Shown: piece by piece, positions 25,022 to 59,801 of the stretch
How positions within the stretch are numbered: the first letter of the stretch is position 1
Layout of the letters: every line of letters starts with the position of its first letter
Source of the DNA: Cirrosporium novae-zelandiae
Taxonomy: Eukaryota
Direction of reading: 5' to 3'
DNA: 64,000 nucleotides
Assembly: GCA_026023565.1 (NCBI GenBank)
Contig: JAPETS010000026.1
Coordinates: forward strand, 124,001 to 188,000
Translations under genes and position numbers: made by a program
Notes under the pieces: model-generated
What the model saw: only the letters and a program-made list of their open reading frames with translations
What the model was told of the DNA's origin: nothing
Databases searched by the model: none

Positions 25022-28000
25022 CTACGCCCTAACAGCATAAGCCACATGATCCGACGTGCTATACGTCCCCTCAGATCTAATTAACATGCAGGAATAATAC
25101 TGAGAAGAATCCCACATGGCGACCATGCAATAAGTACCCCAACTGTTACACCAATCGAGACACTTGGTAAAAGTAGAGATACCTGCCGGGGCACCAGCAG
25201 ATGCGAAATAGGTACCACTGGAGCCAGATGTATAACTTGTAGTGGCGCCACAGTTCATGGTGTAGGCGGTGCCGGACTCGGTAATGGAGCCTGAGGAGTA
25301 GCCGCTGGGGCAATAGGGGGTGTACTTTTTAGCGTATGCGACGGTGGAGGAGACGCTGGAGGTGCCGGCGGCGGAGAGAAGCATGCAGGAGAAGGCTTGG
25401 GTGGAGTCCCACATGGCGACTTGGCAGGTGTCACCCCAGGAGTTGCACCAGTCCATGCATTTAGCCATGCTAGTGATGCCGGCAGCGGTGCCAGCGCTGG
25501 CGAAAAAGGTTCCGCTGGAGCCAGTCGTGTAGCTCATGCTGTGGCCGCAACTCATTTGGTATTGGGTGCTACCTTCAGTGAGGTAGCCGTCGCTGACACC
25601 TGCCGGGCAGTAGGTGGTAGAGCTTGCGGAGGCGCTGCTAGAGGTAGAGGTAGAGGTAGAGGTTGTGGAGGATGAAGAGCTGCTGCTGCTGCTAGTGGAT
25701 GTGGACGTGCTGCTAGTGGATGTGGACGTGCTGCTAGTAGACGTTTTTGTTGATGTTGTTGACGTGCTTGTGGATGTGGTCGTTACAGTCGTTGATGTCT
25801 TCGTTGAGGTGGATGAAGATGTTGAGGATGTTTTGGTTGAGGTCGAAGTTGAGCTTGATGATGTTGAGAAGGTGAAGCATCGGGAACCGAATTGATAAAC
25901 TTGGTCCTTGAGTGTCTGAGCTGACGATACTCCATTAAAGTACATCGAGTTCTTAGTTTCCATAGTAGACACAAGCTTCAGTCCTCCAGCTGGGCAGGTG
26001 CTTGTTCTCTTGGCGAGCGCAGACTTTCTACTATCAATGATGTCGAAAAGAGAGTCGGATCGCTTGGACATGGTTCGGTCGTTGAAGTAGGTTCCGTTAG
26101 CAGCGATTGACCTATCGATAAATTTGGTTCCGTTGGCAGCCATCGACCTCTCTTCAAAATAGGTTCCGTTGGATAGCAGGGCCCTCTTGCTGACGGTGCT
26201 AGCAGACGAAAGCACTTCGGCGTCAAATCCGAGAGTGGTCTGCGTAGTGATACCAGCAGCATTTTGCATTGTGGTCCCGAAAACAACAACCGACATCTCA
26301 ATTGACGTCTTCATGTAAGGTGTCAAAACCACTCTTCCAGCCTTGGTGAACGATGGATAGGTTACACTAGCTGCTGGCTGCCAGCTAGATGGGTTTTCGC
26401 CCTGACTATCTTTTAGATCTAGGGTAGTCTTGGCATTGCTTAATGTCATCGAAGCTCCTCCTTGAACAGTGACAGCGCCGTCCGTCTGCCAGCTAAGTCC
26501 AACACCGTAAATAAATTTGGGACTAGATAGTTAGTTCGAGACTTTTCATATTCAGAATCAAAGAAGTACTTACGCAATGGTGAAGATGTTTGTGGCGGTG
26601 AGCGATGAAAGTGCCAAGGTGGATAGAGCAACATCGATACTGCTGGAGTATGCTGTAACGGTGGTGAGACTCATAACTAGGTTCGATGTGGCGCTATAAG
26701 TGCAAGTAACCGCTGCACCCAATACCGATTTTGTATCCACGACCACTATAAGAACACCCTCAAGTTTGAGAGAAGATACGGCAAGGTTGCAATTGACACA
26801 ATACATCTTGTCGCCTCGGGAAGTAGACGCCAGAAGAGAATTTGCTGGAACAGTGATTGTTACTGTCGACGTGACGTAGACATCAGCCTGTGTGACTGGA
26901 GGGTACGTGCTTGAAGAGGGATGGAGAATTTGATAAAGTGCCAACGCGGCTTGATAGCCATCCTTAAGGTCAGAATAATCTGAGCAAATTTCGCAGAGGG
27001 CATCAATTAGATCATCTGTGAGGAAGTCATCGAGATAATCTAGGGCGGTAGTTAACCAAGACGGAAGGGAAAAACGCTTCTCCGGAGTAAAGGAACGCTT
27101 TTCCGGGACAAGTGTAGCAACTGTTATTGAGGTACTTGTCGCGAAAGTCGAGTCGCTAGAAGTGGCTGAATCAGTAGCAGTAGCAGAAGCACTGTCTGAG
27201 CTACTCGCAGTTGATGAGGCACTAGTATCATCATCACCCTCATATAAGGAATATCCCTCAGGGAGAGTTTCTTGGACATTATCGTCGTCAGTAATGGCAT
27301 AATCAAGGTCAGCAGCACTAGCAAGAGCGGTTAGAGTATTATCAAGGATAATTTCTGGAGTATCGAGTAGATCTGCAGCCAAAGCAGCTTGGAGCTCTGC
27401 CTGATAGTCTGCGTCATCTGGCTTGAAATCATCGACTTCGATTGTCGGAGTCTGCGTAGCCATTGCTCCCAAATATAGTTGAATATACCCATCGTCGTTA
27501 TAGACTATGCCAGCCATGATTTCGTCATACATTTGTTGCTCAGCAGCGGTGAGAGCTGTAGAAGAAGCTGTTGATGAGGTTGTTGAAGCTGTCAATGAGC
27601 TGGAGTCCGAGCTTGTTGAACTACTCGCACTAGTTGAATCTGTAGAATCAGTTGATGTTGTTGTTGAACCAGTTTCGGAGGCGGTTGTGCTAGCTGAATC
27701 AGTCGATGAGGTTGAAGAATCCATGTCTGTGCTAGTGGCGCTGGTTGAATCCGTAGAATCAGTTGATGTTGTTGTTGAACCAGCTTCGGAGGCAGTTGTG
27801 CTAGCTGAATTAGTCGATGAGATTGAAGAGTCCGCGTCTGTACTGGTGGCGCTGGCTGAATCCGTTAAGGATGCCAACGAGCTTGAATCCGTGCCTGTTG
27901 CAGTAGCTGACGACGAGGAGCTTGAGTCGGAGTTGGTTGCACTGGCTGATCCAGTCGAAGACACTGAGGAACCTGAACTGGAACCTGTTCCGCTGGTAGA

Positions 28001-30237
28001 TGCTGACGAAGATCCCGAAGCTGTCGCTGAAGATCCCGTTGCAGACCCTGAGGAGCTTCCATATGAGGTGGTCGTCGTTGTGGCTGAAATCTGAATAGGT
28101 GTGATCGTAGTGAGGTAAGTTGTAGAGGTCAAAGTTCCTGACTGGCTGTAGTATGAAGTCATAATGGTACTATAAGGGGCAGCAGCCTCTGTACCTGTAA
28201 CAACATTGCCATAGCTAATTTCCATAGTTGATGCAACATCTGGCCAAGAACTCGTTGCTACTTGACAGACCATTGTCAAGGACTCTGAATCAGCAGAATA
28301 GCTCTGGACCATATAGACCCCTCTCTCCTTATTTGAATTGCACGTCGCACAGTTTGTGATAAGAACAAGCTCACTCTGAGGCCATTGTTGAGCGGTGGTG
28401 AAAGCTTCTGCGCTTGAGAATGTAATTGTTATTGACGTTCCCGAGCAGGAATAGCTGATAATGTACGCTGAATCCTCAAGAGTGACTTGATTGTACTTCA
28501 TGGCAAACTTGATCGATGCTGCATAGGTACCTTCCTCAGGATCTTCGGCATAATTTAGCGTGCATGTCTTGGATGGAACTAAATAACTAAGATCTGTTCG
28601 ATCAACATTTGGGTTGGCAACTGGGTAGACGGTCTTGTCTGAAGCTGTAGAAGATCCCGATGCTTTGGCGCCAGATGCTGCGGATGCTGAAGGGGAAGAA
28701 TCCTTCGAACTCGAAGCTGAGGGAGACGCCAAAGTGGCCATGCTTGTTGTCATTGCGGATGCAGCATCGGTGAAGGTTTGATAAGGGCAGTAATAAGTAT
28801 AACTAGTATCAATAACCGTAATTGTCTTTTCGGCAGCTTTATACGTCCCAGGTAGATAGGTGATGGTGGCGGTTGCAGCTGTGATCGTCGTTGGTGATGC
28901 CAGAGTTATGGTTCTTGCAGGCTCCGTGAAAGTGCCAGGGCGCGGATAAACGACCATGAAGGTTGGGTTTACCGAAGTAGCTGAGGTTGCGATAGAGCCG
29001 CTGCCAGTGATGGTGGCAGTTACATATGGGCAAACGTAAGTATAGCTCGTCTGTGTAACCGTGATAGTTGTTCCAGGGGCGGTATAGGTACCTGGGAGGT
29101 AGGTTGCCGTCGTTGAGGGGCCAGTTATTGTCGTTGGCGCGGAAAGCATGATAGTTCTAGCTGGGATGGTGTAAACACCAGGGGTTGGACACACCGAAAC
29201 GAATGATCCTGCTGATGCGGCGGCTATAGAGGAGCCACTGCTAGCTGTCGCATATGGGCAAACATAAGTATAGCTAGTCTGCGTAACGGTAATAGTAGTT
29301 CCGGCTGCTGTGTAAGTGCCTGGAAGGTATGTTGCTGTCGTTGATGGACCAGTTATAGTTGTTGGTGCGGATATTACAATCGTTTTGGCTGGAACGGTAT
29401 AGACACCAGGAGTCGGATAAACAGATACGAATGATCCTGCTGAAGCAGCTGCCACAGAAGAGCCGCTGTTGACGGTTGCATACGGGCAAACGTAGGTATA
29501 GCTTGTTTCAGTAGCTGTAATAGTCGTTTCTGGTGCTGTATAAGTGCCAGGCAAGTAGGTTGCCGTTGTTGATGGGCCAGTTATAGTGGTTGGTGCTGAT
29601 AGTACTATTGTCTGGGCTGGAATGGTATAGACACCAGGGGTTGTACAAACTGATACGAATGATCCTGCTAAGGCAGATGCTACGGAAGAGCTGCTGCTAA
29701 GGGTTGCGTAAGGGCAGTAATAGACGTAATCTGTTTCAACAACTGTCACGGTGGCTTCAGGTGCTGCATATGTGCCGGGGTAATAGGTCGTTGTCACTGA
29801 GTTCCCGGTAATGGTGGTCGGCGCGGTCAGCACCATAGTTGTTGCTGGCATAGTATATACACCAGGTGTGGGCATAACAGTTGACATGAATTTTGGCGTG
29901 GATACGACTGGCGAATTGGCACTAGCACTAGCTTGGATGTGAGCACTGATATGAGCTGCAACATCCGTGGCTTGCTGTGCCGCGGCTGCACTGCTCATAT
30001 AAGTCGCCGATGGGCCGGGTTGCACCACTTGACTATTTGTTAGCAACGACCTTGCTAGAAAATGGGGTTTCCCAAAGATAACGTACAGGTGCCTTCTCCC
30101 CAATAGGTTGTCACATAGGTTGTGCAGCCACAGATAGCATCGTTATTGGAGACATCTCTCTTTTCCAAGAGACTTGCAGCCGAGGTGAGCGATGCGAAGA
30201 GCAAGGCTGCCTTGTAGGAAACCGATTTCAGTTGCAT
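25022..30237 (-). CDS. Large (~1700 aa) secreted Ser/Thr-rich modular protein (3 exons)
   Basis: Signal peptide MQLKSVSYKAALLFASLTSA; five ~76-aa PTPGVYT repeats; Cys-containing beta-rich middle domain (DUF7029-like by recollection); S/T linkers; two C-terminal Cys repeats. GT-AG introns near 30.03-30.09 kb and 26.52-26.57 kb join the ORFs in frame. Confidence 0.8.
28790..29890 (-). repeat. Coding tandem repeat, 228-nt (76-aa) unit, ~5 copies
   Basis: GAATGATCCTGC recurs at 29201, 29429 and 29657 (228-nt spacing). Confidence 0.9.
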
Positions 30238-32251: not shown

Positions 32252-33900
32252 TGTTATGGATGCTAAGCCACGTGACTCACCTTATATAGATTCCGGAGCT
32301 CGCACCTTAGATTCTAGACCTAAAGACATCAATATCACAATAGTTATACTTCTAGATAAGAGCTTCACTGAGTCTATATCCTAGGTGTGGTAACAAGTGG
32401 TAGCATAATTCACGCAAGAAGCGGTATTCCATCTACTGCTGCAGCATTCTTTGAACAATGGTGTCTCTTAGATCTCAATTCTATTAGCAGTTTGCTAAGA
32501 AATTTGAGTTTTTTCCCCTCAGACCTTTTGAATATCCTGTTAAATAGAATCTTTGCCTCTTCCCTTCCGATCCTTGCAATCCCGACCTCAGTTTTACTAG
32601 TATTTTCTTACTAGAAGTGAGGCCCCTTTGACAGCTTATGGAAAATACCTGTCCGTTTACTCCACTTCCATCCACCTCACCAGCGAGCTCAATATTACCC
32701 TCCCTAGAATGCTAGAATTCTAGAAATTCTGCATTTTACCCACCCTCACCTCTTGATTTCCGCGTCTATCTTGACCTCGCTACCTCTATCGACTAGACCT
32801 CAGCTTTATTAGCATTTTACTAGTATAAGTGAGAGACTCCCGACGGCCACCTACTAATAACAAGCTCGATATCCCCCCACCAAGCCAGTGGAATTACCAC
32901 CTAGCTCCTTATTTCTCTAGAATTCTGCATCCTATCTCCTAGAATTCTTCCATTTCTTATTAACTTCGACCTTGTTCACTCTCAGGCCTTTGAATCTCAG
33001 CTTCCCTAGTATTTTACTAGTCAACTTGAGAACCTTCATACGAAAAGCTTCCTCATAAGCTCTCTCAGAACTGCCTTCAAAACTCCCCCTTACCCCCCCC
33101 TCCGTCGACCGAACCTCAGTTTTCCTAGTATTTTACTGGCTAGACTGAGAGCCTTCTTACAAACCCCCACCGAGTCTTGCATCGAGCCCCCAACCTTGTG
33201 CTGGCTTCAAAATGAACCGAATTGCACGTAAGCAGGAGATGTATGATACCAGCTTACAGATTATGCATATAGAAATTCGCAGACAAATGGTACGGATATT
33301 GAATAATGAGCAATTATGCGACCTTATTTGTCAATATCACGTACGCAACAATTATAAAGATATTGCAGCGAGCTTTGTCGGTGTGCATAATATGCAAAAA
33401 TCAGTTGCTTCCCGTACACCTTCTCCAAAACCCCGAGTCTCGACCACCCCCGCACCTAGGTCTTCCAGAAGCTCCTACACCAGCTCTAAGAGCTTCCCTA
33501 GAAGCTTACCTAGTCAGTCCAATGCCCCGAGCTCGAACAGACCAAGGGAGTTAGTCTGGCCGGTCTGGTCTAATTATCGCCAACACTGCTTCCCTTAAAA
33601 GGCCTAGTTCGCTTCCTGCAGCGACTACCCTAATTGCTGCGTCACTACCCCTAGCCCTAGTTCACCCCCTCGATAAGCATCATTCTAATGGAGCTTTGTG
33701 ACACCCCACCAAAAAGCCCACCCCTAAGGCTTTGATCAAAGTTTCTATTAAAAGCCCCGCCAAAACCCTTACCAAGACCTTAGCTATGCCCCTCAAAGCC
33801 CCCCTCAAGACTTTTACTCGACCCCCCTATGCCTTTATATCGATACCTCCGCAAAGCTTTCACGATTTTGGACTTATATACCCGATTCAACAAGCTTAGG
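32252..33900 (+). mobile_element. LTR (family A, 32252-32395) followed by a degenerate internal retroelement remnant
   Basis: TGTTATGG...GGTAACA similar to 23116-23266, immediately followed by AGTGGTAGC (PBS-like TGG); downstream is CTAG/TA-rich decayed sequence with internal repeats; no TSD. Confidence 0.55.
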
Positions 33901-33997
33901 CTGCAGTTCAGCCCATAGCCACAACGTCTGATACTCTCACGCTTATCGGCGTCATGGAAGGAGGGAGGTAGCAGCGCGTGATTAAGTTAACCAGAGA

Positions 33998-36900
33998 CTA
34001 TGAAGTTAAGATAACTACTAGGTCACCGAGATCACGAGCCATCTGCCTTTCTCGGAGTCTAAAAGACTGTCTCAGCTCTTCTTTCATGAGTAATCTCCAT
34101 TGAAAATTCTTTAAAATTGTACCTGGAGAGGCAATTGTACCTGGCGAAGCGATCAACCGTGCAGCACCAGTCCCATTCAGCCTATTCACTTTCACTAGAA
34201 ACAGTGAATCTAACTTCCTAAAGAAGTATCTCCCCTCATGTACTAGGTCCTACGGTGTCGTTATTGATATTTCCGGAGCACGAATGACAGTCGTCTGGAG
34301 TAAGGCACTCCCATTGTTCCAAATAGAGTTAGGACCCCTACATGTGATATTTCCAGATTCTAAGCATTTAAATGAAACGTACGCGAACGTAGCACAATCG
34401 TCAGAATAGCAAGTACCTGAGCCCAATAGCTTCCCCCCGACTCGGAGTATGGAACCTTGAAACCTCGATCGAGATCGTCTGTCCACGGCCAAGCGATCAA
34501 GAAATTCTTCTTTTCTCGGTCGATCCCTGTGTCTTGAAAGGTATTAAGAACTAGATGGATAATCCCTGAAACATAATCATGATACTTCAAAGGTATGGTA
34601 TTAAACCAATTTGTCAATGAATCATCATTTTGGAATGCACTGATAAGGTTATACTCTGTTTCTAGCTCTTCCCATAAATCTCTTTGGGACGGGAAAGCGC
34701 CAGCAAAAACCGGCAGCAAGCCAGCTACCAGCTCCCGCAAAGGGACCCTTCGAGCAACGCTTGTACAATAGCTCACTTGGACGCCCCACGGTTTTTTTAG
34801 GTATGATCTCAACTGGCCCCACGTTTTTGACTCAAGCATGCATTCTTTCAAAGTTTTGCCGCATATTTTGTGCCGGGATGCAACAAATTGCAAGAGAGCA
34901 TAGTTTCCTATCTGAAATCCTCCCTGTATTTCATCGAGGCTCCCCCAGTAAGACCTGAACGAACTCAAAGGTTGTAAGGCGAAAGAGGAATTCTCCCGGC
35001 ATTCCCTTTCATGGTTAGAGCAATTATCATTGATTATAATTGGCGTCCCGACAACGATTTTGGTACGTGTGTCGAAGGTGACGGAGCATCTTTCAAATTT
35101 CACATCTCGACTCCAATGAAATGCACTACTATCCCTATCAGATGCGTATATAATCCCCCCCTATATTAATAGCGCAGGGATATTGATCTTTATCTTTGCG
35201 AATCACAAGATAACCAGGACCCCAGGTGTCAAGAAGATCTTTAGCAGTAGCCAAAATATCGTATTTCTGGTTATTTTCAAGCGGCACGGTTCTTTTAGGG
35301 GCTAAATTCATACGAAAGGCGAACACTGGCCCCCGAGTCATATTTTCCATACACGTGAGATTGATAAGTTGCCCTTCGATCTGTTCATATTGATTTTTGA
35401 ACAATTCGTTGCCTAGTAGTAGAATCATTTTTTGCGGAGTATTTAAAAAAAAGGGGCGAATGACTCCTATATGTGCTTGAGTATAGAACAGAAAGCCTAA
35501 GCAAAGGAATTGTACAGCTAAAGAGCATAATTGAAGGATAGAATCAACGGTATTATTATACAGGAAACTCGTAGCTTCTGGTACGAGTGGTCTGAGTATT
35601 TTCACGGCCGTATTCTGGATTTTAATAGTTTCTGGATCAATAATTTTATTCAGACCTGAAAGACGTTTGATTTCCACCAGTCGCTCTACAGCAAGATTCA
35701 AATCTAATTGCCATAGCTCCACTTGGTCTGGTTTTTCCTTATTATTTGGGTCGAGGCTATTGGCGGGATACTGTAATATAGTAAAACAATCGCAACAAAG
35801 TCCAGCCATTTGAATTTGACCGGCCGCAGAGCAAAAGTCTTCAAGCGTTTTAGTGATTCTAGAGACGATAGTATGACGATTTGGATAGCAGTCATCTGCG
35901 AGTTAATCATATTGTGGTGGAGTGTATCTGTATGCTCATGGACTGTACGTACTTTTAAGTCATAGGAACAGCAAACAAACCAAACTCCAAGATAATATTT
36001 GTAGCCATAGTAGCCATGTACTGACTCGAACACTGTGTCGGTAATTGCGAATGGGCAGGGGTGTAATCGTAGATTGCAAGTCCCTAATTCATGGAATAGA
36101 AATATGAATAGCTAATTGTATAATTGAACGAATAGATCTTTAATTGAATGTATAGTTGGATAGGTAAATCAAAAGCATTTTTGATTGATTCATAGGTAGG
36201 TAGATAGACGTTCCATTTATAGGCAGCTTAATAGATAGAAAAACTTGATGTCTCTTTTATCCTTAGACTCTCGCTGACCCCTTTAACCCTCCGAAAAAGA
36301 AATTAAACCAAATTGCTTTTGTTAGGGGGGCATGCCCACTTACTTCACCATAATATGATACAATATAGCAATAGAATTTTGTTCTTCAAATATGATGCTG
36401 CCATTCCATTCCTTCGGATCGCGAGATATTGGTTTAATTCCAGCTAAATCGCAGAGTTCTTGAACTGTTTTTCCAATATCTATTTCTTCAGTCGACTCAG
36501 TAGGACTCGTACCACTAGCGCAATCTCGATGTGCGTATCCTGGAATATGAATGCCAGATTTTATTTGCGCTTGACGGAATTTGGAAGGTTCAAAATAGAT
36601 CCGAGGGGTATCATTAGCCTCTTCGAATAATAATTCTGCTATCTCGTCATAGCTATATCCCATCCTATTTAATTCACGTATCCATGAATATTCGCTTTCC
36701 GCAACAAGATCGAACCGTTTGGCTAACAACCTTTGTAAGACTTTGACTTCGCGATATTCCAAAGCTTCTTTGATTGTGGTTGGAGGATGAATGAAACGAC
36801 GAAGATTATCCTTAAAATGATTAAATGATGCTCCTTCGGTCAGGAAAGCTACTACTGATTCGAGCTCTTGGAAATCCTTATTCTTTTCATTATTCTCACT

Positions 36901-37428
36901 GCTCTCATTGTCTTCAACCTCACTGCTCCTGTTGCTATCGCTGTCTTCGATAGGAAAGTTTAGTGTTATTATGTTAAGCTCTTCTGGTACTCCCGCCATC
37001 GAAGTTTGCGATTGCAAATATCGATTCAATATAGGCCGAGAATCTGGCTTCTGGGTTTCCAATTGTTGCATAGCTTGTAATCTTTCAGGGCTAGGGTTTA
37101 GATGGTTGTATATTGTTTCGGTCACTTTCCCTCGTCGATATTGTTTTCGAAGTATATGAATAGCCAGTTGCTGAGGTTTATTCTGAGTTTCCAATCTAAG
37201 ATCATAGAAGAACTTTTTCAAAAGGCTATCGTGGTTGTTGGCAAATACCTTTTTATCAACTTTTTTGAAAGCCTCCAGATATAGCTGCCGTAGATCAGTA
37301 TTCTCGTAAAATAGTTTTGCCATATATTCAAGAGCCATTTGATGGAGAACTTGAACGGAGCCCTGTGAAATGCCACTCTCAGTCGAAGCGCTCTGGGAGA
37401 AAATTAATAGAGCCTCCGATACCCCGGA
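33998..37428 (-). pseudogene. Decayed large domain of unknown function, in frame with the upstream lectin-kinase ORF
   Basis: Collinear ORF fragments 36340-37338, 35138-35809, 34360-35103 and 33998-34195, broken by frameshifts (e.g. homopolymer at ~35155), stops and a 450-bp TIR insertion. Confidence 0.7.
35908..36357. mobile_element. MITE-like insertion with 16-bp TIRs and apparent AT duplication
   Basis: Left CATATTGTGGTGGAGT vs right ACTTCACCATAATATG (14/16 inverted match); AT-rich interior; excision restores the host reading frame. Confidence 0.7.
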
Positions 37429-39105
37429 TTAATCATTCGATTCTATGTCTAATCTTGTACTATTTCGCTCTATCTTTGCACAACAAAAACCATAGTACAA
37501 CACACCCGAGTGAGCATCTGGAGGAAAACTTAAAATCGAATCCTTTAAGTATCTTGCATTCCAACGCTTATTCTTGTCCTGCTGTAACATATTGTTGATC
37601 CACTCTAAAGGCTTATTCTCAAATTCAGAGCCTCCACGATCTCGTAGTTCCTTTATCCATAGTAAGATAGCCTTTGGAATCATCCAGTACTTCTCGCTTT
37701 CAGCATCTTTATCGAGAAAGAAGTTTCTCATTCTTTCGATCGTCTCTCCTTTCAGAACTGTTATCATTTCCAAGAAAACGCATCCTAGTGACCAGATGTC
37801 AGAAGATGATCTCGATGATCCATTGCTTGCAGCCTCCGGGGAACAATAAATGGAGCTTTTTCTCATTTCCGCCTTTGTCGTGGCTTGTTCAATATCGGCC
37901 CAGTCCCAAGCCATCCCAAAATCTGTGATTAAAATATTGTTTTTTTTAACCAAAATATTTTGAGGCTTGATATCTTTATGCCGAATGTTAAGAGTGTAAT
38001 GTAGATAAGCAACCGCACTTGATAAGCAACCAAAAAACGACAACAATAAGATCTTTTTATCAATCGCTCCCGGAACTTTGGTGAAGAAGCCAGCTAAATT
38101 GTCCCCTGCAACTGGTGACGTAATTAAACCAACCGTTGTTGAAGTTGTATAACTTTCAATAAATTTGATAAAGTGATATTGACTTTCTCTATCCTTCATC
38201 TTCTTGAAGACTTTTAATTCACTCTCAACATATTTCATCACTTCTAACGTTTCAGAAAACGTATTTTTGCGATTAATTTGCTTCAGCGCATATTCCTTCA
38301 ATCCCAAAACCTTCTGTACATAGCCAAACCCTCCAGATCCTAGATATGCTTTCCATTGCAACTGTTTTGGAGCATCAGAATCGTAATCAAGATTAGTCTC
38401 GGTGAGATGGCAATGCTCGCCTTCCTCTAAGTTAGTGGCCCCGGTACAAACAATCCATTGGGTGTTTAGAAATTGCATGTAAACACCCGGAGCCATTCTA
38501 GTGGGTATGCTTTGTTTGGAGAACGGAAACCAGAGATCGGTGATGCCATTATCAACGAACATTTGCATATACTCCAATTTGTCAATGGCACGTAGAACGA
38601 TATAGATTCTTGGGACGTGACCCCAAGACTCCTTTCCCGTTTCTCGAAGTTGATTAGCAATACGTTGGATTCCGACATCTGAGTATTGTCCTCGATACGT
38701 GAATTCAGCGACCAGTTCTCTGCCTTCGTTTGTGGAGTAATCGATTTTTAGTTTGCTACCCCTTTTTGTTGTTGTCGCGAATGTACTATGTTGCGTCCAA
38801 ATTATATCGCTTTTCAAACCCCCGTAGTAAGCTGGATTAATATTTTTTGCAGTGTCATCCTCTTTAAGATCGGTAACGATATCGCACCACCTCTTGTAAT
38901 TGTGAATGCCGAGAGCCAAGCAAAATATCTCTCCAGAAGAGGATTTATAACGGAGCATCCCAGACGTACCACTGCCATCCATGAAAAGAAAATGGCCGGT
39001 TTCATCTTCAGTCCAAGCAATCCCAGTGGTAAAGCATGTCTTTTCAACAACAGTGAGGGTTTCATCGCTATCGTTGAAGACTGTCAACTTGATGATGTAT
39101 GACAT
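37429..39105 (-). CDS. Fungal fruit-body lectin (ABL/XCL, actinoporin-like fold) fused to a Ser/Thr protein kinase
   Basis: N-term VVEKTCF...W...MDGSGTSGMLRY...LGIHNYKRWCDIVTDL...INPAYY; kinase GSGGFGYV, YALKQI, HKDIKPQNIL, DFG, YCSPE, SDIWSLG all intact. Confidence 0.88.
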   Translation of the reverse strand: MSYIIKLTVFNDSDETLTVVEKTCFTTGIAWTEDETGHFLFMDGSGTSGMLRYKSSSGEIFCLALGIHNYKRWCDIVTDLKEDDTAKNINPAYYGGLKSDIIWTQHSTFATTTKRGSKLKIDYSTNEGRELVAEFTYRGQYSDVGIQRIANQLRETGKESWGHVPRIYIVLRAIDKLEYMQMFVDNGITDLWFPFSKQSIPTRMAPGVYMQFLNTQWIVCTGATNLEEGEHCHLTETNLDYDSDAPKQLQWKAYLGSGGFGYVQKVLGLKEYALKQINRKNTFSETLEVMKYVESELKVFKKMKDRESQYHFIKFIESYTTSTTVGLITSPVAGDNLAGFFTKVPGAIDKKILLLSFFGCLSSAVAYLHYTLNIRHKDIKPQNILVKKNNILITDFGMAWDWADIEQATTKAEMRKSSIYCSPEAASNGSSRSSSDIWSLGCVFLEMITVLKGETIERMRNFFLDKDAESEKYWMIPKAILLWIKELRDRGGSEFENKPLEWINNMLQQDKNKRWNARYLKDSILSFPPDAHSGVLYYGFCCAKIERNSTRLDIESND

Positions 39106-39635
39106 TTTAGATGGTGGATGTAAAGCGTAAGCTGCGTAGCTAGTAAAGAAAACGGGCTTTATGAGCGCTAATTTGTCAATGAAGGGTAAGGCAGTGCACA
39201 CCTAGGGCTCCCACAACGACAATAGCAAGTAGGAAAAGATCATCGCTTTAAGAACTAGCTGCTTGTCATCGCCCCGCGTTCGCTATTTCAGCCTTTCTAC
39301 GAAGCTATGGAATAAGTACTTGGACTGCCACCTCCCGCCTCCTCGGGTTTTCTTGATGGCACCAGGCTTGGGTATCACTGCAGTTTATCCCGAAAATTGT
39401 TCGCCGTGGCTTGCCTTGCATTTTATCTGGCCTATTAGTCGAAAAGTTTTTCCTAGAATCCCTGTCCATGACGCAGACATTTCACTAGAACCACGGGAAC
39501 ATAAGGATAAAGAAGTTCAGTTCTAATAGCATGTTTACGAAAAAGTAGCCCTTATCATTCTATGCTTACGTTAGTCGAACAAATCCTCATTTACATTGTA
39601 CCAAGTTACTAAGAGCTGTGGCAGCATGTGCGGAA

Positions 39636-41627
39636 ATGGATATATTTAGCACAACTATCACCGTCATCCACGAGATCTACGCGATCACTGTCTTTATCCG
39701 GGGCGTTGTCAACGACGTCAGTTCGTACGAGTCAGATAAGAAAGATATCCAAGACAAATTGCAGCATGAATTCGTTTTCATCGATATGTTTAAGATTACT
39801 TTTCTCGACGAGGGTGCAGGTCGGGAGCGCTATATCAAGCAACCTAAGATCTTGCAACAGGACGTAAATATTACCTCAATGAAGCTTCGGAGTATTCTTG
39901 GAGAATATAGGACGGAGGCTGTCAAACATGGCCTCTTGGATCCTCACGATAATGCAGCTAATGAGGGAAGAGTGATTACGGCTAGAGCCGCTATCGCAAT
40001 AGACAATGAAGTATAGATTCAAGTTCACGCACTCCTTAAACAAATCAAGTCAACGGCGAAAGACCTAAAGAAGAAAGGTTTCAATTGGTCTCTATTCGAT
40101 AAGGCAAAGATTCTCCACACGCTGTGTGCATATACCGAATGGGCCCAGCGGCTACGACAAACCATGTCGCTCATGCTTTCCACCATGTTCCTTGGCGGCG
40201 ATGGCTATAACAGCCTAGGCGATTTTGCGAACACTCAAGTAGCAAAGGATATGGGGCTCCAAAACGTGGCAAGACGTCAGGCCCTTATTCGATCCAGCCC
40301 CCCAGGTGACTTCAAGGAACTCGATGGAACTGTTGTTGGAGGGTCTGAGTGGGCAAAGACATCACATCTAAAGATTGCCAAATACGTTGACGGCTGGGAA
40401 TCGGAGCCCAGAGAAGTCGTTTTAGAGTATCGGAAGTATAATAAAATACTAGCACTAGCAACTCGTTTTAGGCATGCAGCAGTTATCCGTCAGCTAAAAG
40501 AACCTATCAGAAAACTGGCTTGGCTGCTTCACAGCTCCACATTCCTGGATGGCAACGATGAAAGCCCTATGGGTACAGCCAACTATTCAACTTTGCTCGC
40601 TTTACAATGCATCGGCTACCTCGACCAGCCAGATCAATGCCAGACCATCTTTCTATACGAACTTCCGCAAGCAACAACTTTATGGGGAAATTCATGGATC
40701 ACAACACTTCACGACCTTATCAACAGCGTTGATCCCATAACGAAATACGCATTGCCCAAACCTGTTCTAGGACATCGCTTCTTCCTTTCTTATGCCCTTG
40801 CCTTAACGGTACTCAATATACATAGCTCCCGCTGGGTTCACGAGAATATCTCGAGCCATGGTGTTGTTGTATTTCCCGCACCTAACTTGTCTCGTCCCTC
40901 CGGAGCCCAGCGTTTAATTCCATACCTCACAGGCTGGGAATCTGCTCGGCCCATTCTCGGGGACACGGAACTAAGGCCTAATATCGAAATTGAGCCGAAT
41001 CTATATCACCACCCGATTCGCCAGGGGCAGCCGACAAGCCGATTTACCGCCGAGTATGATATCTATGCGCTTGGGGTCGTGTTGATGGAAATCGGGCTGT
41101 GGAAAACCATGAACAGTGTTTTCCATCAACAGATTGAAAAGGCTTTACGTGAAAACATATCGCCACCATTAATGTGAAGGCAGCGCTTAATACAGGCAGT
41201 GTGGTAGACTAGTGAGGCAAAGGAATATATAACTAATAGGTATAATATGCTATTCGCATGCTAGACGCAAGTAATGATGATAGCTTTCGAAGTGCTCCTT
41301 CTGTAGATACAAAAGTCGAACGCTGCCTTGATGAATCAAGCAGCGTTCTCCTACATAAAGGTTTGGCCACGCGCCAAGCCTCGCCTATGCGCCTACGAAG
41401 CGCATATGCTTGGCACGCCGTTACAATTAACCATGGTGAAGAGGAGGTGGGCTACCACGGCACGCCGAGAAGTAGAGGGTGAAATGGGAGAGGCTTATGC
41501 AGAAGCAGTTGACAGGTGCTTGATGGGGAGATTTGGTGTGGAAGACAATGGAGTTGAAAATAGTGGACTGCCTATAGCGTTTAGAGATTTGGTGGTAGAG
41601 GTTATGAGGCAGGGAATAAAGCTGTAA
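39636..41627 (+). pseudogene. HeLo-like N-terminal domain + kinase-like (pseudokinase) protein, disrupted
   Basis: Hydrophobic N-terminal helix, WSLFDKAKILHTL (HeLo-like W-x-x-F-D-K); kinase-like WVHENISS, PYLTGWESARP, LYHHP, YDIYALGVVLMEIGLW, MGEAYAEAVDRCL; in-frame TAG at 40014-40016 and solo LTR at 41173-41425. Confidence 0.78.
41173..41425. mobile_element. Solo LTR (family B) with 5-bp TSD ATTAA, inserted in coding sequence
   Basis: ATTAA-[TGTGAAGG...CCGTTACA]-ATTAA; near-identical segment at 59631-59801; diverged copy at 44231-44483. Confidence 0.88.
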
Positions 41628-43225
41628 AGTACATATTGTGCGCCAGTTTTTCGGGTCTGAGACTTTGCTATCAAATTGCACTATGGAGAGAGCGTTCAGG
41701 GGTTCGGGTTTTAGCATTGCAAATGGCACAATACCGTGGCTGGGAATGGGTTCGAAAAAGGGCGGGCCAGCATTAAAGTCGAGTTATCGTTTGAAGTTTG
41801 CTATTCGCCAGATTTCTTTCACTTCTTGATTGAGATTGGTTCTGTGCAGAGTTGTCGTACTACCTGGGGCCGTAGGTAATTCAGGCAGAAGCTCCTCCAG
41901 GAAACAGCCAGCCAGCTATTATTTTCAAAATCCCAGGGCTCGCATCTCTTAAACCGTCCACTCCCACACGCTAACAGGAGCTGATATAAAGGATTATGAT
42001 AGGTTGCATGACTTTTTTAGGCATCATCAAGTATCAATATTCGTTAAGTAACATCGAGTCTCAAGATCTTGTTATTGGGCTAACCTAGCTCTTTAATGTG
42101 ACTCCCCGCCCCCCGTGCTAAAATGTACAGAAGGTGAATGCTCTACGGGATTTGAGAATTGCTGCAGAAAGAGGGTAGATGCATAAAAGGATGCAAGTGA
42201 CTTTGATCTGTTAATTAGAAGGGCAATCAACGTTTGCATGGCTGATTATTCTGCGGGGAAAGAGGGTACCTTTTGACAATAGATCACAATGGTCAATCAA
42301 TCATCTATTTTCCCTGTGCTTTTTTATCATACGGACGAATGCCCAAATTTGCTACCTATCTAGGTAGTCAATAATCTCATATTTCCTTACTTTGTACAGT
42401 ACATCTACATTTAACTAAGCTTAAAAGAAGGGACGTCCGAGGAAGGCACTAAGCAATTATCCGTTAAACTTGTAGTCGGACGTATCGGATTACCTACTTT
42501 GGCATCTAGTGCATAACTTTAATTAATGCAAGTCCATATAAACTTGGCTACGACTCGTAAAAAAAAATAACAGAATCAAATCAAATCAACCAAGATAACG
42601 TTATAATTAAAAAATTAACACAATATCCTATTAAAGAATTCTCACCGCCTTAGTTCAAGTATCCATATACCACGTAACACTTTAAATCAAGTGAAACACA
42701 CTAAAATATATATGTAGTAGATATAAAGTACAATTAACGATGATGTACTTAGTAGGTTGGTACTGCAGAGCCTCGTTGTCAATTAGACAAAAAGCGTTAT
42801 GCATACAGCATCCTAAAGTATATTCGGGAACCCTCATCATAAGTTCTCAAGACATCCATAAGCGAATAAGTTTTCGTGTCTAGACTCTACGTATATTATG
42901 ACGGCGGATAGAATAGGAAACAAGAACAGAATAATGTTTGATTGAATGATTATTATCCCTTGCAATTGATAAACAGATATTATCCAATTCCGGCTATTTC
43001 GCTTCCTTGAAAAAAGAAAAACTCTGAAAATGGACGGGGATTGGTAATGCATACATGACCTTGTGCATATCGATCTCCTTGCTAATTTCTTATCCTAGAT
43101 TCCGTGGGTGTTTGCCTTGAACTCCACCGTTGTCTCCTAATTCCACTACAAGCCAATATGAGTCCTGGATGCAAGCGACTAAGGATTTTATAGTTCGCAA
43201 GTCATAGTAGCAATATGTCAAATAA

Positions 43226-43608
43226 CAGGGAAAAGAATGGACCAAACGGACCTCGGGCTAATCCGTCTACGAAAAATCGAAGGCTCGGTCTAGTCCGTTA
43301 AATCAACCACCCTTTCGGGTGTGGTGCAGATAGACTGAAGACTGCTACGTAAAGGAACGTTATTAACGACTTGAAGAGCTGACAAGTTTTTTAAACCTTG
43401 GAGTTTACAACATCTTATCTTATCTCCACGTGATACTTTATTTAATTTAAATAAAATTAAGATATTTCTACTTGTAGGCTAATACCCTAAATATCCTACT
43501 GAGTAAATATATTATACTCACCTGATTTAACCAAATAGCTCTTGAGCAATCAAGGTCTGGTCCATCTACGGTAGTCGGTCTATTTGGTCTGGTCCATTCC
43601 TTTCCTTG
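43226..43608. mobile_element. Non-autonomous TIR element (hAT-like MITE, family C)
   Basis: CAGGGAAAAGAATGGACC ... GGTCCATTCCTTTCCTTG inverted ends with subterminal GGTCT/AGACC motifs; flanks GTCAAATA(A) / GTCAAATC resemble an 8-bp TSD. Confidence 0.65.
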
Positions 43609-44230
43609 GTCAAATCTTGGCGTGGGCACTGCACCTAGCTATTCGATCGGCAGCACGTGGAATAAAATAGAATGCCTCATCAATTATTCGATGACTGTGG
43701 CTAAGTTTGCTGCCTATTAGCGCCAAGAAGAGATAATACTGATGTGGTGATAGGCCGATGGAGCTTTGCCTAGGCAATACACAACCCACTTCACTGAGGT
43801 TCAACAGGCTGATTGATGGGAACACGAACTCTCGTTGGAAACAGTGCCTAGATGTGACCGAAGGGCTCGTACACAGCATAGCGTACCCATTCATATATAC
43901 AGTAGTAGGCGTTACCCCAGCTTTCCTTCGAACAGATAGAAACCGCTATATTAGATTAGATAACCTTTGTCGAAGCACTGTTCCTTGTTAGTAATTACAG
44001 CATAGCCAGAAAAGCGACATCTTAGTATATATTATTTGAAACAAGACCAAAGTTTCGAAAGCAATCCTTTCTCGTAAACCCTTACTCGAGTAGAAATGAT
44101 AGGATCAGATACCTAGATAATATTTTTGATTGGAGAGCATTTAGCGGGGATAGGCAATGAACTCTCGATCCTTAACATTACATCATCTCAAAGTAGCACC
44201 ACCAAGCAATGATCCAATCTTGCCGCTCTA

Positions 44231-44483
44231 TGTAAGGGCAGCGCCTAATTCAGGTTGCGTGATAGGATAACTATCTAAGTAGTGATTAACTAACTAGAAT
44301 ACTATAGGGTTCGCATTCGAGACGCCAGAATGATGATAGTTTTAGGAGTGCCTTTTGAGGTAGATACAAAAGTTGAACGCTGCCCCCATAATACGTGGGG
44401 TAGCGTTCTTCTTTATAGGATTACTCAGGCGCCAAGCGAGCGCTTCGTAAGCGCATAGACGTGATGCTTGGCATGCCCTAACA
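44231..44483. mobile_element. Diverged solo LTR (family B)
   Basis: TGTAAGGGCAGCGC...GTAGATACAAAAGTTGAACGCTGCC...TGCTTGGCATGCCCTAACA, alignable with 41173-41425; no matching TSD. Confidence 0.72.
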
Positions 44484-45168
44484 ATTATATCAAACTATAC
44501 TATGTTTTATACAGGATCAAAAATTTTCAAACCAAATTTCTTTTAGTTTTCGGAAGTGATAACTTCCGACACCCGGATAACATCGTCGATTAGAAAATAT
44601 TTACCGGGTACGCGGGCACGGTCGGATCATGGGCACGGTAGACTAAAACTAAATAGATTGCTTGAAATTAATTTATTGGATATCTGCGATATAAAGTGAC
44701 GTAGGTGGTTCTATGAAGGATTGCGAAATTATTGCTGCTTTAGTTGTTCTGTCCGACAACGGGGGTCCTACCTGAAACCCGGACGCCCTGCTTTGATTCA
44801 ATTATCCGAATATGGCCATGACCCAATTTTGCTGCTTTATCTGTCCGGTCTGTTCTGGGAGCTTTAATAGGTTAGAAGGGGGACCTTAAGCACTTGCTGC
44901 TCTATCTCGACATATACCGTCCCTCATTGAAGGGGGACGTCCCCTTCGTTAGAAAAGCGATCGTCTTAAAACGCATTAAGCACCAGCTAAACCAAGAAGC
45001 GGAATCACAGGCTCACCCGCATTAGTGGTTTAATGGTATAAACGAAGTTGTAGATGGTGAAGGTATGCTATTATACAGGACGCGGGAGCAGTAAACGACG
45101 TTTCTTTCACTAAGAGCAGATGAAAAAGTAGAACAGCGTGAATCATTAATACAATTGGTCAAGAAAGG

Positions 45169-45511: not shown

Positions 45512-47767
45512 ATGACCGAAGTAGGCCGGCTTTCAAAAGACGACTAGCGCCGTCGTCGTGAAGCCAGAAACCAAGGAATCAGGGAGATAAAAGAGCATGC
45601 GGCTCCTACCAAAAAAGCTTTCAACTGGGGTCGAAGGCTGTGGTCGAAGTGAGTTTTGTATAGATCCACTATATACTTACACTAGCTACTAATATCAAGC
45701 GTTGAGGTACTGTGGAGAATTTGGATATACCCCCAACGGTCATGTAGCCAAATGTGACGTCGATGACTTTGAAGAATTTCTAGACTGGTGTTTGACTCCA
45801 CAGAACTCAAATATCAAACAGAAAAGCTCTCTTATACAATTATGGACATGGGTACGGTGCATGTATATCGAAGCCACGGGAAAGAAAATCACTCATGATA
45901 TTAATAAACGAATGGATTTTGTAAGTTGCCTACCGTTATAATCCAGATTTGTGGTAATGATTTTCAGGTTATCGAGCAACTAGCGAAAAGTGCAGGACTA
46001 AACTCCCAAAAAGCAAACAAGCCATGTTTAGGAGTGGATGATGCAATTCTTATTTTGGAGTCTCTTTGGAGCAGGATGAATCTTGCCTTTTCAAACGAAC
46101 GGCATAGAGTCCAGCTTTCGCTATTGATCCTTATCCATGCTTTCACGACTCAACGCCCCGGCTCTATTGTTGAAAGTAGTGACTACTACGGAACAAATAG
46201 ATGTTTGTGCTACAAACATGTCCACCTGCTTCTTGTTCCCAACCCAGAGGAACTAGGTCGCCCCATCATTATTATGGAACTGAAGCTAGAGCATCTCAAA
46301 GGAAAACGGGAGGAGAAAACTGGACCGTAAGATTCCACTAATAAATAATCACAAAATTGGGAAACTGATATCATGTAATTAGGTTGATATTTGTCTTTTA
46401 TGAAAGAGATGACTGTCTTGTGTTGTGTCCAATAGCTCATATGTTAGGCCTCGCATTTGCTGACAACGCATTTGAATCGGATTTCATAAAATGTCCCGAA
46501 GATATTTTCAAACTTGAGATACCTCCCTCTCGCCGGAGTATAGAGCTGAAATGGAAACCTGAGATGTTTGATATCCCGGTTTTCCGCGGCATTGGACATG
46601 ATGGGTCAGTCTCAAAAACACGAGCCCTTACATACAATGTGTTTTTTCATGACCTCGAAAGGATCGGGGACGTAGCCGGCTTCCCTATGAAGGTTACTCC
46701 ATATTGCATTCGTCGAGCTGGAGGCATGGCACTTGATGGTAAGCTTGTTCAAATAATCGTAGTATTAACTTTTTAGTTGATTAAATCGCTGATTATATGC
46801 AGAAACCACCACAGCTGCATTACGCAATCAAGCAATGGGACATGGCAGATCAAGCGTGTATCAAACCTATTATATGAGTTCCTATGTTAATGCTGATGTG
46901 CAAGCTGCATATCTTGGGGTACCTTCCAATAAGGCCCTATTCCGTGCTGTGGGGCGCATGTCTCTTCGAAGTGATGCCCGCGCACCCACTAGCCTTACCG
47001 ACGAGCAAAAGGCCGAGCTGGAACAAGACCCCTCGCTTATAGCATTGAGAAACGAAGTCCAAAGTATCAAGGAAGCAATCTCAAAAGAGTACGGCATAGT
47101 AACAAAGTCGAAAGGCACGGCGCTTTACAAAAGCTATATCAACGCACAAAACAGATATCGCTGGACGAGATACTCATTAAACCGTAAACGTAAAGCTATG
47201 GCCAGACAGAAATTCTTCGACACTATCGATACAATTGAAGTTGACCGACAGCTTGCAACCAAACTTAATCAAAAAAATCAAACCACAGCACTCGATAGTG
47301 ACAAAAGTGATCCGAAACAAGTATTCGAAATTCAGGAAAGAGCCATCCTGGTTGAGAACCTATTCCAACCTCAATCCCAACTTTCAGACCGCATTTTGGT
47401 AATACAAGCCATGACTGGGCTGTGCCGTCGAAGAGAGATGCCGGGAAAAACCCCAGGGGATCGGAGAACTCATCCAGCCAAGGAAGCCAAAATGGAAGAA
47501 TCGAAAAATCAACATTTCAACATACCTATAATCTTGAAATCCGTGCAGTGCATATTTTGTATAGGCGACACAAGATTGCCAATACGATCCCGTACCTACT
47601 CTTTCTCTCGGCCAGACGCGATACGGAGGCATATGGAACATTCTCATTACAGGCATATACCAAAAACTGTTACTATCGAGTGCCCGCATCCAGAATGTAA
47701 AGAGAGACTCACTGGAGTCGATCATCTGAAAAATCACGCACAAGTGGTACACGGAATCACCTCCTAG
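45512..47767 (+). CDS. Starship captain: DUF3435 tyrosine recombinase with C-terminal C2H2-like zinc fingers (5 exons; TAG at codon 12 in my gene model)
   Basis: RHRVQLSLLILIHAFTTQRPGSIVES, LCYKHV, CPIAHMLGLAFADNAF, LKWK...IPVFR, PYCIRR, RNQAMGH, YQTYY; CIFC...H...H and CPHPEC...HLKNHAQVVH. Confidence 0.9.
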
Positions 47768-51363: not shown

Positions 51364-53100
51364 ATGTCGTCAAAATCGTTGTCCACGCTACCCTTGGAAG
51401 TTTTGAATAATATTATGCAACATGTTTGTCCCCAACTCTTGTTCACTATTTGATCCAGAGAGCTGATATCATTTTTAGCTTTTTCAATCTGATTTACTCA
51501 ACTTGAATACTACCTGTAAACAGTTACATTATTTAACGCAACCCGAACTTCTGAAGACTGCATTCATCGATATTCCCGGCTCATGCTTGTGCTCCTACAC
51601 CAAAAAACGATACCTTCATACTATCGAACACCTTACAGAGTATTCGAGAATAGTGAAAACCATCTCCATATGCGACAACATATTTCTCAGTCAGCTAGAG
51701 CCAAATAGGGCCCCGAACTGGGATAAGGAGCTTCTGGGTGGACTCAGTGAGACGATTCAACGTTTACTGAAATTAGAAAACTTCAAGTGAGTGGCCTACA
51801 GCCTGTGGTATTAAACCAATTTAACCAAATTAGATTTTCCCCTAAAAATCTTAAGAATGCTGCAGCGAACAACTGGTTACCTGACCTGTGGACTGCACTT
51901 TCTTCGTTGAAATCCTTGGCTATCATGGATATAATCATCCCGCATACCCTACCTGAGAACATCTACTTTACTAGCCTACATACTTTAAGATTATATATCC
52001 GCCCAGGATCACTTCCTAGAACCTTACCTTTGATGCCCCAGCTTACCCATCTTACCTTGAACTTCGATAGAGGCGTGCATAGTATCCACCAAAACAGAGT
52101 GCACGGCTTTATTAGTTCCCAGACCACTCCCAAACTTTCAAATCTTCATATTCAAGACAATGAATTTGTTCTTGAAATGTTTGACCAAATATCTTTTGTT
52201 AAACCTGAAGTTATTAGTTTCTGCAATTGTGGTGCCATTTCTACGACTTTAATCTCTCTGCTTTCGGTCAATCTGGAGATCCTAACCCTCAAATTTTGTT
52301 TTTTGACATCTGATTCAACCGAAATCATATCTTTACCTCGTCTCAGACAGTTGAATATACTCCGTTGCGATGGAAATGACGATCAGTTCTGGCTTCAATT
52401 TTTGGATTGCCCAACACTCTACTCGTTGACCTTTCTATCTATACTCAAGCGACCTGCAGTGCAATTGGCTCTCGCGTTATTCCTCGAAAGGAGTAAACAG
52501 ACATTGGAAGTTTTTAGTTTGGGGAATAAATCTAAATCCCACAATGACGAAAATGAGAATATACTGATTACAGATCTCTTTATCAGTATACTTGGATTAA
52601 CAAACATCCGTTTCTTAGTCTTGAGGGATCGCAGCATGCTAACTCTACGCATGTTGGCTAAGCTGGTGCAATCCACAAAACTATCCGGATTAGCCTTAAC
52701 TTTGGACGGAAAAAACCATGATCCCAAAGATCTATGGCCAAATGTGAGTTTTCTCGAGTGACAAGCATTCTTTTTACTATATACTGATAAGTATATCCAG
52801 TTCTACAATTTGAAAGCAATGTTTAGCCCGGATCTACAGTATCTGTGGCTTCACACTGGTTGGATTAATATTGAAAGTGACGATGCCGATCAATTAATTT
52901 CCGATTGGGAAGCTGCTAGTCAGACCTGCCAACAGACACCTACTCTATGTCAGCTCAGTATCGAAGGACAGGCTTACATGGTGGGGACGTGCATGTCAGT
53001 ACATGGACCGAGGCTTAGGCCCGTTTTCTTAGGCCAGGTTCCAATCTCCTCTTATCATCGAAAGATAAATGCCAAGATATGGCTAAATAATGTTAGATAA
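51364..53100 (+). CDS. F-box protein with LRR-like C-terminus (Starship cargo), spliced
   Basis: Spliced N-term MSSKSLSTLPLEVLNNIMQH-LFQSDLLNLNTTCKQLH (F-box pattern); LxxLxL repeats (LHTLRL, LTHLTL, LSNLHI, LRQLNI). Confidence 0.7.
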
Positions 53101-56400: not shown

Positions 56401-56589
56401 ATTTTCCGGAAACAATTCTTTCAAGGCTATTTCCTTCTTCCCTTTGCCGATAAAGAAGACTATCCTCGGGAACTGGGACGATGGGTTATTCAGTGAATGA
56501 ACAAGCCGGGCTAGCCGAGCTTCATTCACTAGGCCTGCTCTAGCCCCGCTAGAGATCCGCAGCCAAGATGTGTGTGGGCATGAAGTCAT
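53438..56589 (-). CDS. Patatin-like phospholipase with Cys-rich region (Starship-associated PLP), spliced
   Basis: ILSIDGGGVRG, FDLAVGTSSG, RATSAAP, FQNGG (DGG position); CLFC...CGHSICDTC...CVLC upstream. Confidence 0.88.
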
Positions 56590-56822
56590 TTTTTTTTGTA
56601 GTTGACGTTAGAAAGATAAGAAACTTGATGAAAGAAACAGTATTGAGTGGTTGTTGTTGCTGTCAATGGCTGTCCCTTGGTCTTTTTATATTGGGACCTA
56701 CGTCCACTTCCATGAACCTCCGTGAAATGGGGTCCCCCTTTCCTCGCGCCTCGTAGTACCCTGACACTATTAAGGTATGTCACAGTCAAAGCAGATGATG
56801 CCCAACTCCATTTTCCTAACAA

Positions 56823-59629: not shown

Positions 59630-59630
59630 T

Positions 59631-59801
59631 CGCATGCAAGACGCAAGTAATGATGATAGCTTTCGAAGTGCTCCTTCTGTAGATACAAAAGTCGAACGCT
59701 GCCTTGATGAATCAAGCAGCGTTCTCCTACATAAGGGTTTGGCCACGCGCCAAGCCTCGCCTATGCGCCTATGAAGCGCATATGCTTGGCATGCCGTTAC
59801 A
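59631..59801. mobile_element. 5'-truncated LTR (family B)
   Basis: Near-identical to 41255-41425, ending GCCGTTACA. Confidence 0.85.

Follow-up and report, generated by a model that had tools for sequence, protein, structure and literature searches.

A fruit-body lectin joined to a SAM-like domain and a kinase in Cirrosporium novae-zelandiae: a candidate sensor kinase of a fungal cell-death pair

In one fungal death protein, BH of the Podospora het-B locus, specificity is already known to reside in a fruit-body (FB) lectin fold (PMC10890737). BH is an intracellular protein from a two-gene locus in which a C-terminal, distantly related FB-lectin-like domain is the recognition part and controls a HET/TIR-like domain; a PII-like protein has been proposed as its ligand (PMC10890737). 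In animals, RIPK3 and MLKL combine an active kinase with a protein consisting of a helical bundle and a pseudokinase. Fungal proteins with HeLo or HELL and kinase-like domains ('MLKL-like', Pfam HeLo plus DUF7580) are mentioned in the accessible part of PMC12881547 without an activator, and no activating or linked kinase is named there. In plants, Rmo2/Rwt7 (PMC13600239) and R3NLR/R3AK (bioRxiv 10.64898/2026.08.07.743466) are systems of intracellular kinases with an exchangeable bait, in which an MLKL-type protein is the executor of a paired sensor. Here we describe a locus of the fungus Cirrosporium novae-zelandiae (contig JAPETS010000026.1 of assembly GCA_026023565.1, positions 124,001 to 188,000; this stretch of 64,000 nucleotides is called the window below and all coordinates refer to it), where a single gene, P0001, joins an N-terminal FB lectin, a SAM-like middle domain and a Ser/Thr kinase, next to a broken gene for a HeLo-like/pseudokinase protein (Table 1).

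Like BH, P0001 combines an FB-lectin fold with an intracellular protein at a two-gene locus, but its lectin is a close member of the family and N-terminal, and its output is a kinase. By sequence, the locus also pairs a kinase predicted to be active with a helical-bundle/pseudokinase protein in the manner of RIPK3 and MLKL; the fungal genes differ in adjoining each other and in the SAM-like domain and built-in sensor of the kinase. No RHIM-like amyloid motif was seen at P0001, though none was searched for, and there is no evidence that its kinase is an orthologue of RIPK, its fold matches being generic kinases. The neighbouring gene belongs by sequence to the fungal MLKL-like proteins, but it is broken. 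The plant systems resemble the proposed fungal pair in their bait and executor, but come from another kingdom and another kinase family; moreover, their HMA baits bind protein effectors, and the R3 sensor is an NLR. We give about even weight for and against P0001 being the cytoplasmic sensor kinase of a fungal two-gene immune or cell-death module resembling RIPK3 and MLKL.

Table 1. Features of the lectin kinase locus (positions within the window)
Feature	Position	Strand	Evidence
P0001, single-frame gene for lectin, SAM-like domain and Ser/Thr kinase, 558 amino acids	37429..39105	-	Open reading frame, Pfam, AlphaFold2 model
Fruit-body lectin (ABL/XCL, actinoporin-like), residues 1-138	38692..39105	-	Pfam PF07367, PDB sequence matches, Foldseek
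Five-helix domain preceding the kinase, residues 138-237; SAM-like fold ~161-221	38395..38694	-	Sequence matches, model
Protein kinase domain, residues ~247-543, HKD for HRD, ending in the Cys motif GFCC	37477..38367	-	Pfam, motifs
Divergent HeLo-like plus pseudokinase gene, broken	39636..41627	+	Homologue alignment, family profile
253-bp repeat resembling a solo long terminal repeat, TG...CA ends, 5-bp target-site duplication	41173..41425	.	Lies in 3' part of the neighbouring gene; depth spike
Decayed coding region, unnamed family, in frame past the P0001 stop	34010..37428	-	Translated frames, paralogue DNA
Older ~420-bp repeat inside the decayed region	35909..36330	.	26 matches, the longer ones 70-81% identical

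The lectin-kinase fusion, proposed in an initial annotation of this DNA, proved to be real. The P0001 frame (39105 to 37429) comprises 558 codons with no internal stop, carries both Pfam domains, and has four further counterparts with lectin, middle domain and kinase. Since these four clusters share 44-48% identity with P0001, the gene is neither a chance nor a one-off fusion. AlphaFold2 (92-row alignment) modelled the whole protein with a mean predicted local distance difference test score (pLDDT) of 92.2 and a predicted template modelling score of 0.85. As the same annotation had stated, no signal peptide or transmembrane helix is visible: in the model the lectin fold begins at residue 1-3, and the peak 19-residue hydropathy (1.62, at residue 352) lies within a kinase helix (residues 348-371), an assessment made from the model start and a hydropathy scan. 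Contig pieces of sequencing run X1 match positions 35957-40232 without difference; X1 is possibly the source of the window and hence not independent. P0001 is the sole FB_lectin match in the 31.4-Mb genome.

A public protein of 884 amino acids, P0002, labelled as from a C. novae-zelandiae metagenome-assembled genome, is identical to P0001 over the first ~530 residues; its gene model splices away the end of the P0001 frame and joins a downstream frame. Candidate splice sites exist, the frame is open past the P0001 stop, and likeness to the DNA of a tail family, represented by a paralogue on contig C35, begins ~40 nt upstream of that stop, all of which would fit a true product of 884 amino acids or more, of which the 558-codon frame would be a fragment, wrongly called or cut short. 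We give this hardly any credence, because the splice deletes the Cys motif closing the kinase, whose C542 is invariant in 11/11 aligned members of the clade, and further lesions interrupt the tail beyond the join. In addition, the other four lectin fusions terminate 2-5 residues past this motif, and P0001 ends 16 residues past it. On these grounds the unspliced product of 558 amino acids appears to be the better model. The tail may once have been in frame with the kinase or have been joined to it by a rearrangement, as the likeness to the C35 paralogue already starts within the P0001 frame.

Pfam Pkinase matches P0001 at residues 253-521 (E 2.9e-34), and the set of motifs for catalytic competence (Gly loop, VAIK Lys, helix-C Glu, catalytic Asp/Lys/Asn, DFG, APE) is complete: G256-x-G258-x-x-G261, K275, E296, H376-K-D378-x-K380-x-x-N383, D395-F-G, SPE at 422-424 and D436. 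The kinase is thus predicted to be competent; of the active kinase proposed in the initial annotation, the motif set stands, and the activity itself is a call from motifs. The HKD in place of HRD is a family-wide feature. Such a non-RD catalytic loop fits immune-receptor kinases, which is a weak link.

Between lectin and kinase, residues 138-237 have no match in Pfam, SAM included, and no usable one in the ESM Atlas; their sequence matches occur in many proteins, almost always immediately N-terminal to the same type of kinase. Folded alone, this domain reached a pLDDT of 85.9, and its best VIA-align match was the SAM domain of Tric1 (Z 7.6, root-mean-square deviation (rmsd) 1.7 Å, 61/65 residues), followed by the SAM domains of tankyrase, CASKIN2, BICC1 and SARM1, with SAM named in 14 of the 17 top titles. 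VIA-align advises caution for Z values under 8, and no Foldseek match reached E<=0.001 (E 4.7, probability 0.60); the fold match is therefore borderline, and we call the domain SAM-like rather than SAM. SAM domains often polymerise, tankyrase filaments being an example, and the SAM-like domain is more likely than the lectin to be the oligomerisation module of P0001.

This domain marks a large ascomycete kinase family with interchangeable extra domains. The kinase module has 453 relatives at E<=1e-40, the best 120 of which carry tetratricopeptide (TPR) repeats in 23 cases, ankyrin repeats in 16, an FB lectin in five and WD40 in two, with single cases of PNP_UDP, YTH, DnaJ, WW, SH3, RhoGAP and a Ddi1-type protease. 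In 46 longer proteins selected from the matches of the middle domain, Hsp70 was found 15 times, and BAG, NB-ARC and ENTH once each. Of the two kinases nearest to that of P0001, one (P0030/P0265, 59% identity) lacks any additional domain at the N-terminus and the other (P0045, 55%) carries ankyrins there. Because relatives carry ankyrin, TPR, Hsp70, NB-ARC or nothing at the corresponding place, the lectin occupies an exchangeable slot. It had been suggested in the initial annotation that the lectin might be an integrated sensor or an oligomerisation module; the exchangeable slot speaks for the sensor, and oligomerisation is better assigned to the SAM-like domain. Hsp70 stands ahead of the SAM-like plus kinase core in P0066, P0080, P0102 and P0151, among others, and XPC-binding, BAG, DnaJ, ENTH, YTH and Ddi1-type domains are likewise joined to such cores. 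It looks as if housekeeping domains are used as integrated baits, though some of these cases may be joins between gene models.

The N-terminal domain is an FB lectin by its Pfam score (PF07367, residues 1-134, E 1.3e-40, 139 bits against a cut-off of 25), and both motifs pointed out in the initial annotation, SGTSG (residues 45-49) and HNYKRW (68-73), are found. By sequence its closest solved relatives are XCL, BEL, SRL and ABL; the modelled domain superimposes on XCL with an rmsd of 1.2-1.4 Å (Foldseek E 6.5e-17) and on SRL with a VIA Z of 25.3. With ABL, XCL, BEL, SRL and BGL together it shares the actinoporin-like beta-sandwich fold (rmsd 1.1-1.4 Å, 36-43% identity). ABL/XCL-type lectins and P0001 also have in common the Ser, Gly, His and Asn of the primary site and the lack of a signal peptide, but the former are free proteins of ~140 amino acids and the P0001 lectin is the N-terminal module of a kinase. 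Mutation of S48, G49 or H71 abolishes binding of the T-antigen by BGL (PMC7794217); the equivalents S45, G46 and H68 are retained in P0001 and, together with N69, are invariant in 5/5 lectin fusions; the equivalent of SRL Arg105 in P0001 is Ile. The N-acetylglucosamine (GlcNAc) site of SRL consists of Asp77, Ile78, Thr80, Arg101 and Tyr112 (PMC6272482). At this secondary site P0001 retains D75, I76 and T78, with K98 replacing the Arg and F109 replacing the Tyr, the latter a loss of the hydroxyl that hydrogen-bonds O3/O4 of GlcNAc. It is plausible that the primary site can bind a sugar of some kind.

FB lectins are leaderless defence proteins (PMC10890737, PMC3749967), and fungal chimerolectins resembling AB toxins are known, for example CCTX2 (PMC13324453). 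P0001 might thus be imagined as a defence toxin whose lectin binds glycans in the gut of a grazer and delivers the kinase into the animal cell. This is very improbable: members of the kinase family bear intracellular repeat sensors and not delivery domains, P0001 has a single lectin domain, and the linkage to a HeLo-pseudokinase described below would be unexpected for a toxin.

The architecture is rare rather than common. A word-index search with residues 1-250 yielded three proteins among 314 candidates; phmmer against 1.84 billion representatives gave 790 matches at E<=0.001, and three of the best 150 span lectin and middle domain. Two more fusions were found from the kinase side, which makes five clusters at 90% identity (P0001/2, P0003, P0007, P0157 and P0156/P0263), the four others all from metagenome or run assemblies. 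That all three parts persist across such deep divergence speaks for past selection on the architecture. P0004, a combination of SRP19 and a lectin, was dropped as it looks like a joined gene model. In a rapid tree built from the 60 best of 138 kinase modules, the five lectin kinases and three lectin-less clusters form one branch (Shimodaira-Hasegawa-like approximate likelihood ratio test 97); a 16-row tree lacks this branch and needs three changes, and the approximately unbiased test does not reject one clade for all lectin kinases (p 0.069). In a lectin tree of 64 rows the five fusions fall into two small groups inside one larger branch. It is possible that the fusion arose once and was later lost in some members. 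Among the lectin matches, P0010, P0031 and P0110 carry, behind a HET domain, a tandem pair of FB-lectin domains above the Pfam cut-off; their lectins are closer relatives than the fold of het-B BH. Our literature search, outside which lay most subscription papers and bioRxiv supplements, found no paper on an FB-lectin-kinase fusion or on a fungal pair of kinase and HeLo-pseudokinase, and the MycoLec survey does not contain the word 'kinase'.

The start codons of P0001 and its divergent neighbour are 530 bp apart. The neighbour is 37-48% identical to intact homologues of 555-565 amino acids, and its family profile weakly matches the HeLo domain of HET-s at the N-terminus (2wvo, E 0.002) and the MLKL pseudokinase (4m68, E 5e-4) and IRAK4 at the C-terminus; the pseudokinase lacks the catalytic Asp and DFG. 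The N-terminal piece of the window copy has no Pfam match; Pfam HeLo is found in many of its homologues, and paralogues on contigs C23 and C119 exceed the HeLo cut-off. When the C. novae-zelandiae genome was searched with the middle domain alone, five loci were found, and 5/5 lie within ~4 kb of a HeLo(-like)/pseudokinase gene or the relic of one. Four pairs are head-to-head (C48, C119, C56, C49) and one is tail-to-tail (C23). The partners on C119 and C23 are long open frames; at C56 the pseudokinase domain is ~3.6 kb away and contains a stop, and at C49 both genes are relics. As the pseudokinase family has about ten loci in the 31.4-Mb genome, chance adjacency is expected at ~0.3% per locus. 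A prediction, made without alignments, of the complex between the kinase module (residues 136-545) and the open-frame piece of the neighbour, which lacks both ends, gave a median of 0.31 (mark 0.34; controls 0.00, 0.00 and 0.08) and is counted neither for nor against pairing.

Metagenome loci were represented by the best 80 of 437, of which 22 are SAM-like kinase loci. A partner was found at 2/9 of those with at least 3.5 kb on both sides and at 2/12 of those with at least 3.5 kb upstream, versus 1/18 of the other kinase loci; both pairs (L030 and L040) are head-to-head. Most family members sampled outside this genome are thus unpaired. Within the genome, 5/10 pseudokinase-family loci have no SAM-like kinase nearby, among them that of the nearest intact paralogue (on C37). 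The surroundings of the HeLo loci on C35, C44, C60, C66, C52 and C37, and the DNA upstream of the paralogue of the tail, contained no relic of a kinase. From these counts, the pairing is real yet not obligatory. L039:1-9880 and L040:1690-3813 are orthologous loci with 93-96% identity in kinase and downstream DNA, and the upstream HeLo-pseudokinase gene is present only in L040; loci of non-self recognition typically vary in gene content in this way. At L032:12463-14586 a SAM-like kinase stands tail-to-tail with an open frame which by eye resembles a HET-domain gene and is possibly another effector partner.

The absence of a partner at 7/9 of the long-flank metagenome loci, and the 93% identity of the kinase region between L039 and L040 despite the different upstream gene, would also be expected if P0001 were a stand-alone signalling kinase with ordinary phosphorylation output, whose lectin anchors, dimerises or localises it at membranes or glycoproteins, or senses damage; solved lectins of the family are indeed dimers (PMC6272482). 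We regard this as quite unlikely. The 5/5 linkage in the own genome far exceeds chance, a SAM-like candidate for oligomerisation is already available, and the shuffling of domains in the family would seem more like that of immune receptors than of housekeeping kinases.

If P0001 is the sensor kinase of a cell-death pair, its lectin would bind something foreign to the cytosol, which may be a foreign or leaked glycan of the galactose/N-acetylgalactosamine or GlcNAc type, or a protein, as proposed for BH. Binding would cluster P0001 by means of contacts between lectins and between SAM-like domains, and the clustered kinases would activate one another and phosphorylate the pseudokinase domain of the HeLo-like partner. 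This in turn would free the HeLo-like bundle, followed by membrane damage and death of the compartment. Because the adjacent partner gene is broken, P0001 would have to act in trans on the intact paralogue P0279 on C37, or is possibly orphaned in this genome.

Several observations weigh against this proposal, in addition to the borderline SAM match, the kinase-free pseudokinase loci and the low frequency of pairs in metagenomes. An intact executioner is not present at the P0001 locus: the neighbour carries an in-frame stop at 40014-40016, across which its homologues align straight, so that an intron was rejected as an explanation, and its 3' part is split by the 253-bp insert. The tail downstream of P0001 is broken by the ~420-bp repeat, two frame changes and one stop. 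At the lesion density of the flanks, an intact frame of 1.68 kb would survive by chance with a rough p of ~0.13, and selection on the frame is therefore not demonstrated. The equivalent of SRL Tyr112 is F, I or L in all five fusions (in a gappy alignment). Alone among the five fusions, P0001 has a YANG loop that is two residues shorter; presumably this loop lines the primary sugar site. The two sugar sites of BGL are not allosterically coupled (PMC7794217), so activation of P0001 would have to come from clustering. Finally, the best 80 of 437 metagenome loci do not include any of the other four lectin fusions, and no paper showing activation of a fungal HeLo-pseudokinase by a kinase was found in our literature search.

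The damaged surroundings raise the question whether the family-level interpretation holds but the P0001 copy is itself a relic, which has lost executioner and tail and whose frame is the last part unhit. The stop and insert in the neighbour, at least four lesions in the tail, the decayed pairs on C49 and C56, a lectin loop shorter than that kept by the other four fusions and the chance of survival given above would all fit. This is nevertheless unlikely, as the motifs of the kinase and the lectin core are all intact and the model is confident, P0001 misses nothing the other four fusions have after the Cys motif, and an intact pseudokinase of the same subfamily is encoded on C37. Furthermore, the repeat in the tail is only ~80% like its nearest copies, suggesting that the tail died long ago while the P0001 frame stayed open.

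Scoring of 40 of 68 candidates gave at least 42 genomic matches to the 253-bp repeat, the best other copy being 99% identical; additional copies in the window lie at 59630-59801 (98% over 172 bp) and 44230-44487 (69% over 268 bp). The decayed tail has neither a Pfam match nor a usable match in the ESM Atlas, indices of repeat-induced point mutation gave no clear signature, and Rfam had no match in window positions 33000-44000. Matches on C35 and C47 occur in identical pairs at near-equal coordinates, and these are probably one contig duplicated in the assembly. Elsewhere in the window, a patatin plus RING-like gene is spread over several frames at 53438-56607 (minus strand; Pfam Patatin 28.5 bits), and further frames encode DUF3435 (46793-47767), DUF3723 (57627-59414) and an LRR-like protein (51751-52761). 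We take DUF3435 and DUF3723 to be genes of Starship elements, so that a large mobile element, now decayed, may make up the right half of the window. A very long Ser/Thr-rich repeat protein at 25022-30142 (minus strand) is probably a cell-wall or adhesion protein.

The FB-lectin family is well known, as is the logic of a kinase acting with MLKL in animals and, in part, in plants; what appears to be new here is a lectin as putative sensor module of the SAM-like kinase family. The activating stimuli are a major open question in fungal regulated cell death (PMC12881547). The ankyrin and TPR sensors of the kinase family give no hint of a ligand, whereas the lectin does, and because it has solved relatives and known binding residues no other variant in the family lends itself to testing as directly; the other four fusions, with their better preserved lectin loops, may suit such tests better than the possibly orphaned P0001. 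The SAM-like assignment in turn offers a mechanism for clustering. We tentatively extend the proposal, with considerable doubt, to a necroptosis-like pathway of ascomycetes: kinases that polymerise through SAM domains and carry exchangeable sensors would phosphorylate linked HeLo-pseudokinases, and in the present variant the lectin would serve as a cytosolic glycan receptor. If true, this would represent a fungal intracellular carbohydrate pattern-recognition receptor kinase with a named class of candidate ligands, and an anti-predator lectin would have been repurposed to survey the cytosol for glycans.
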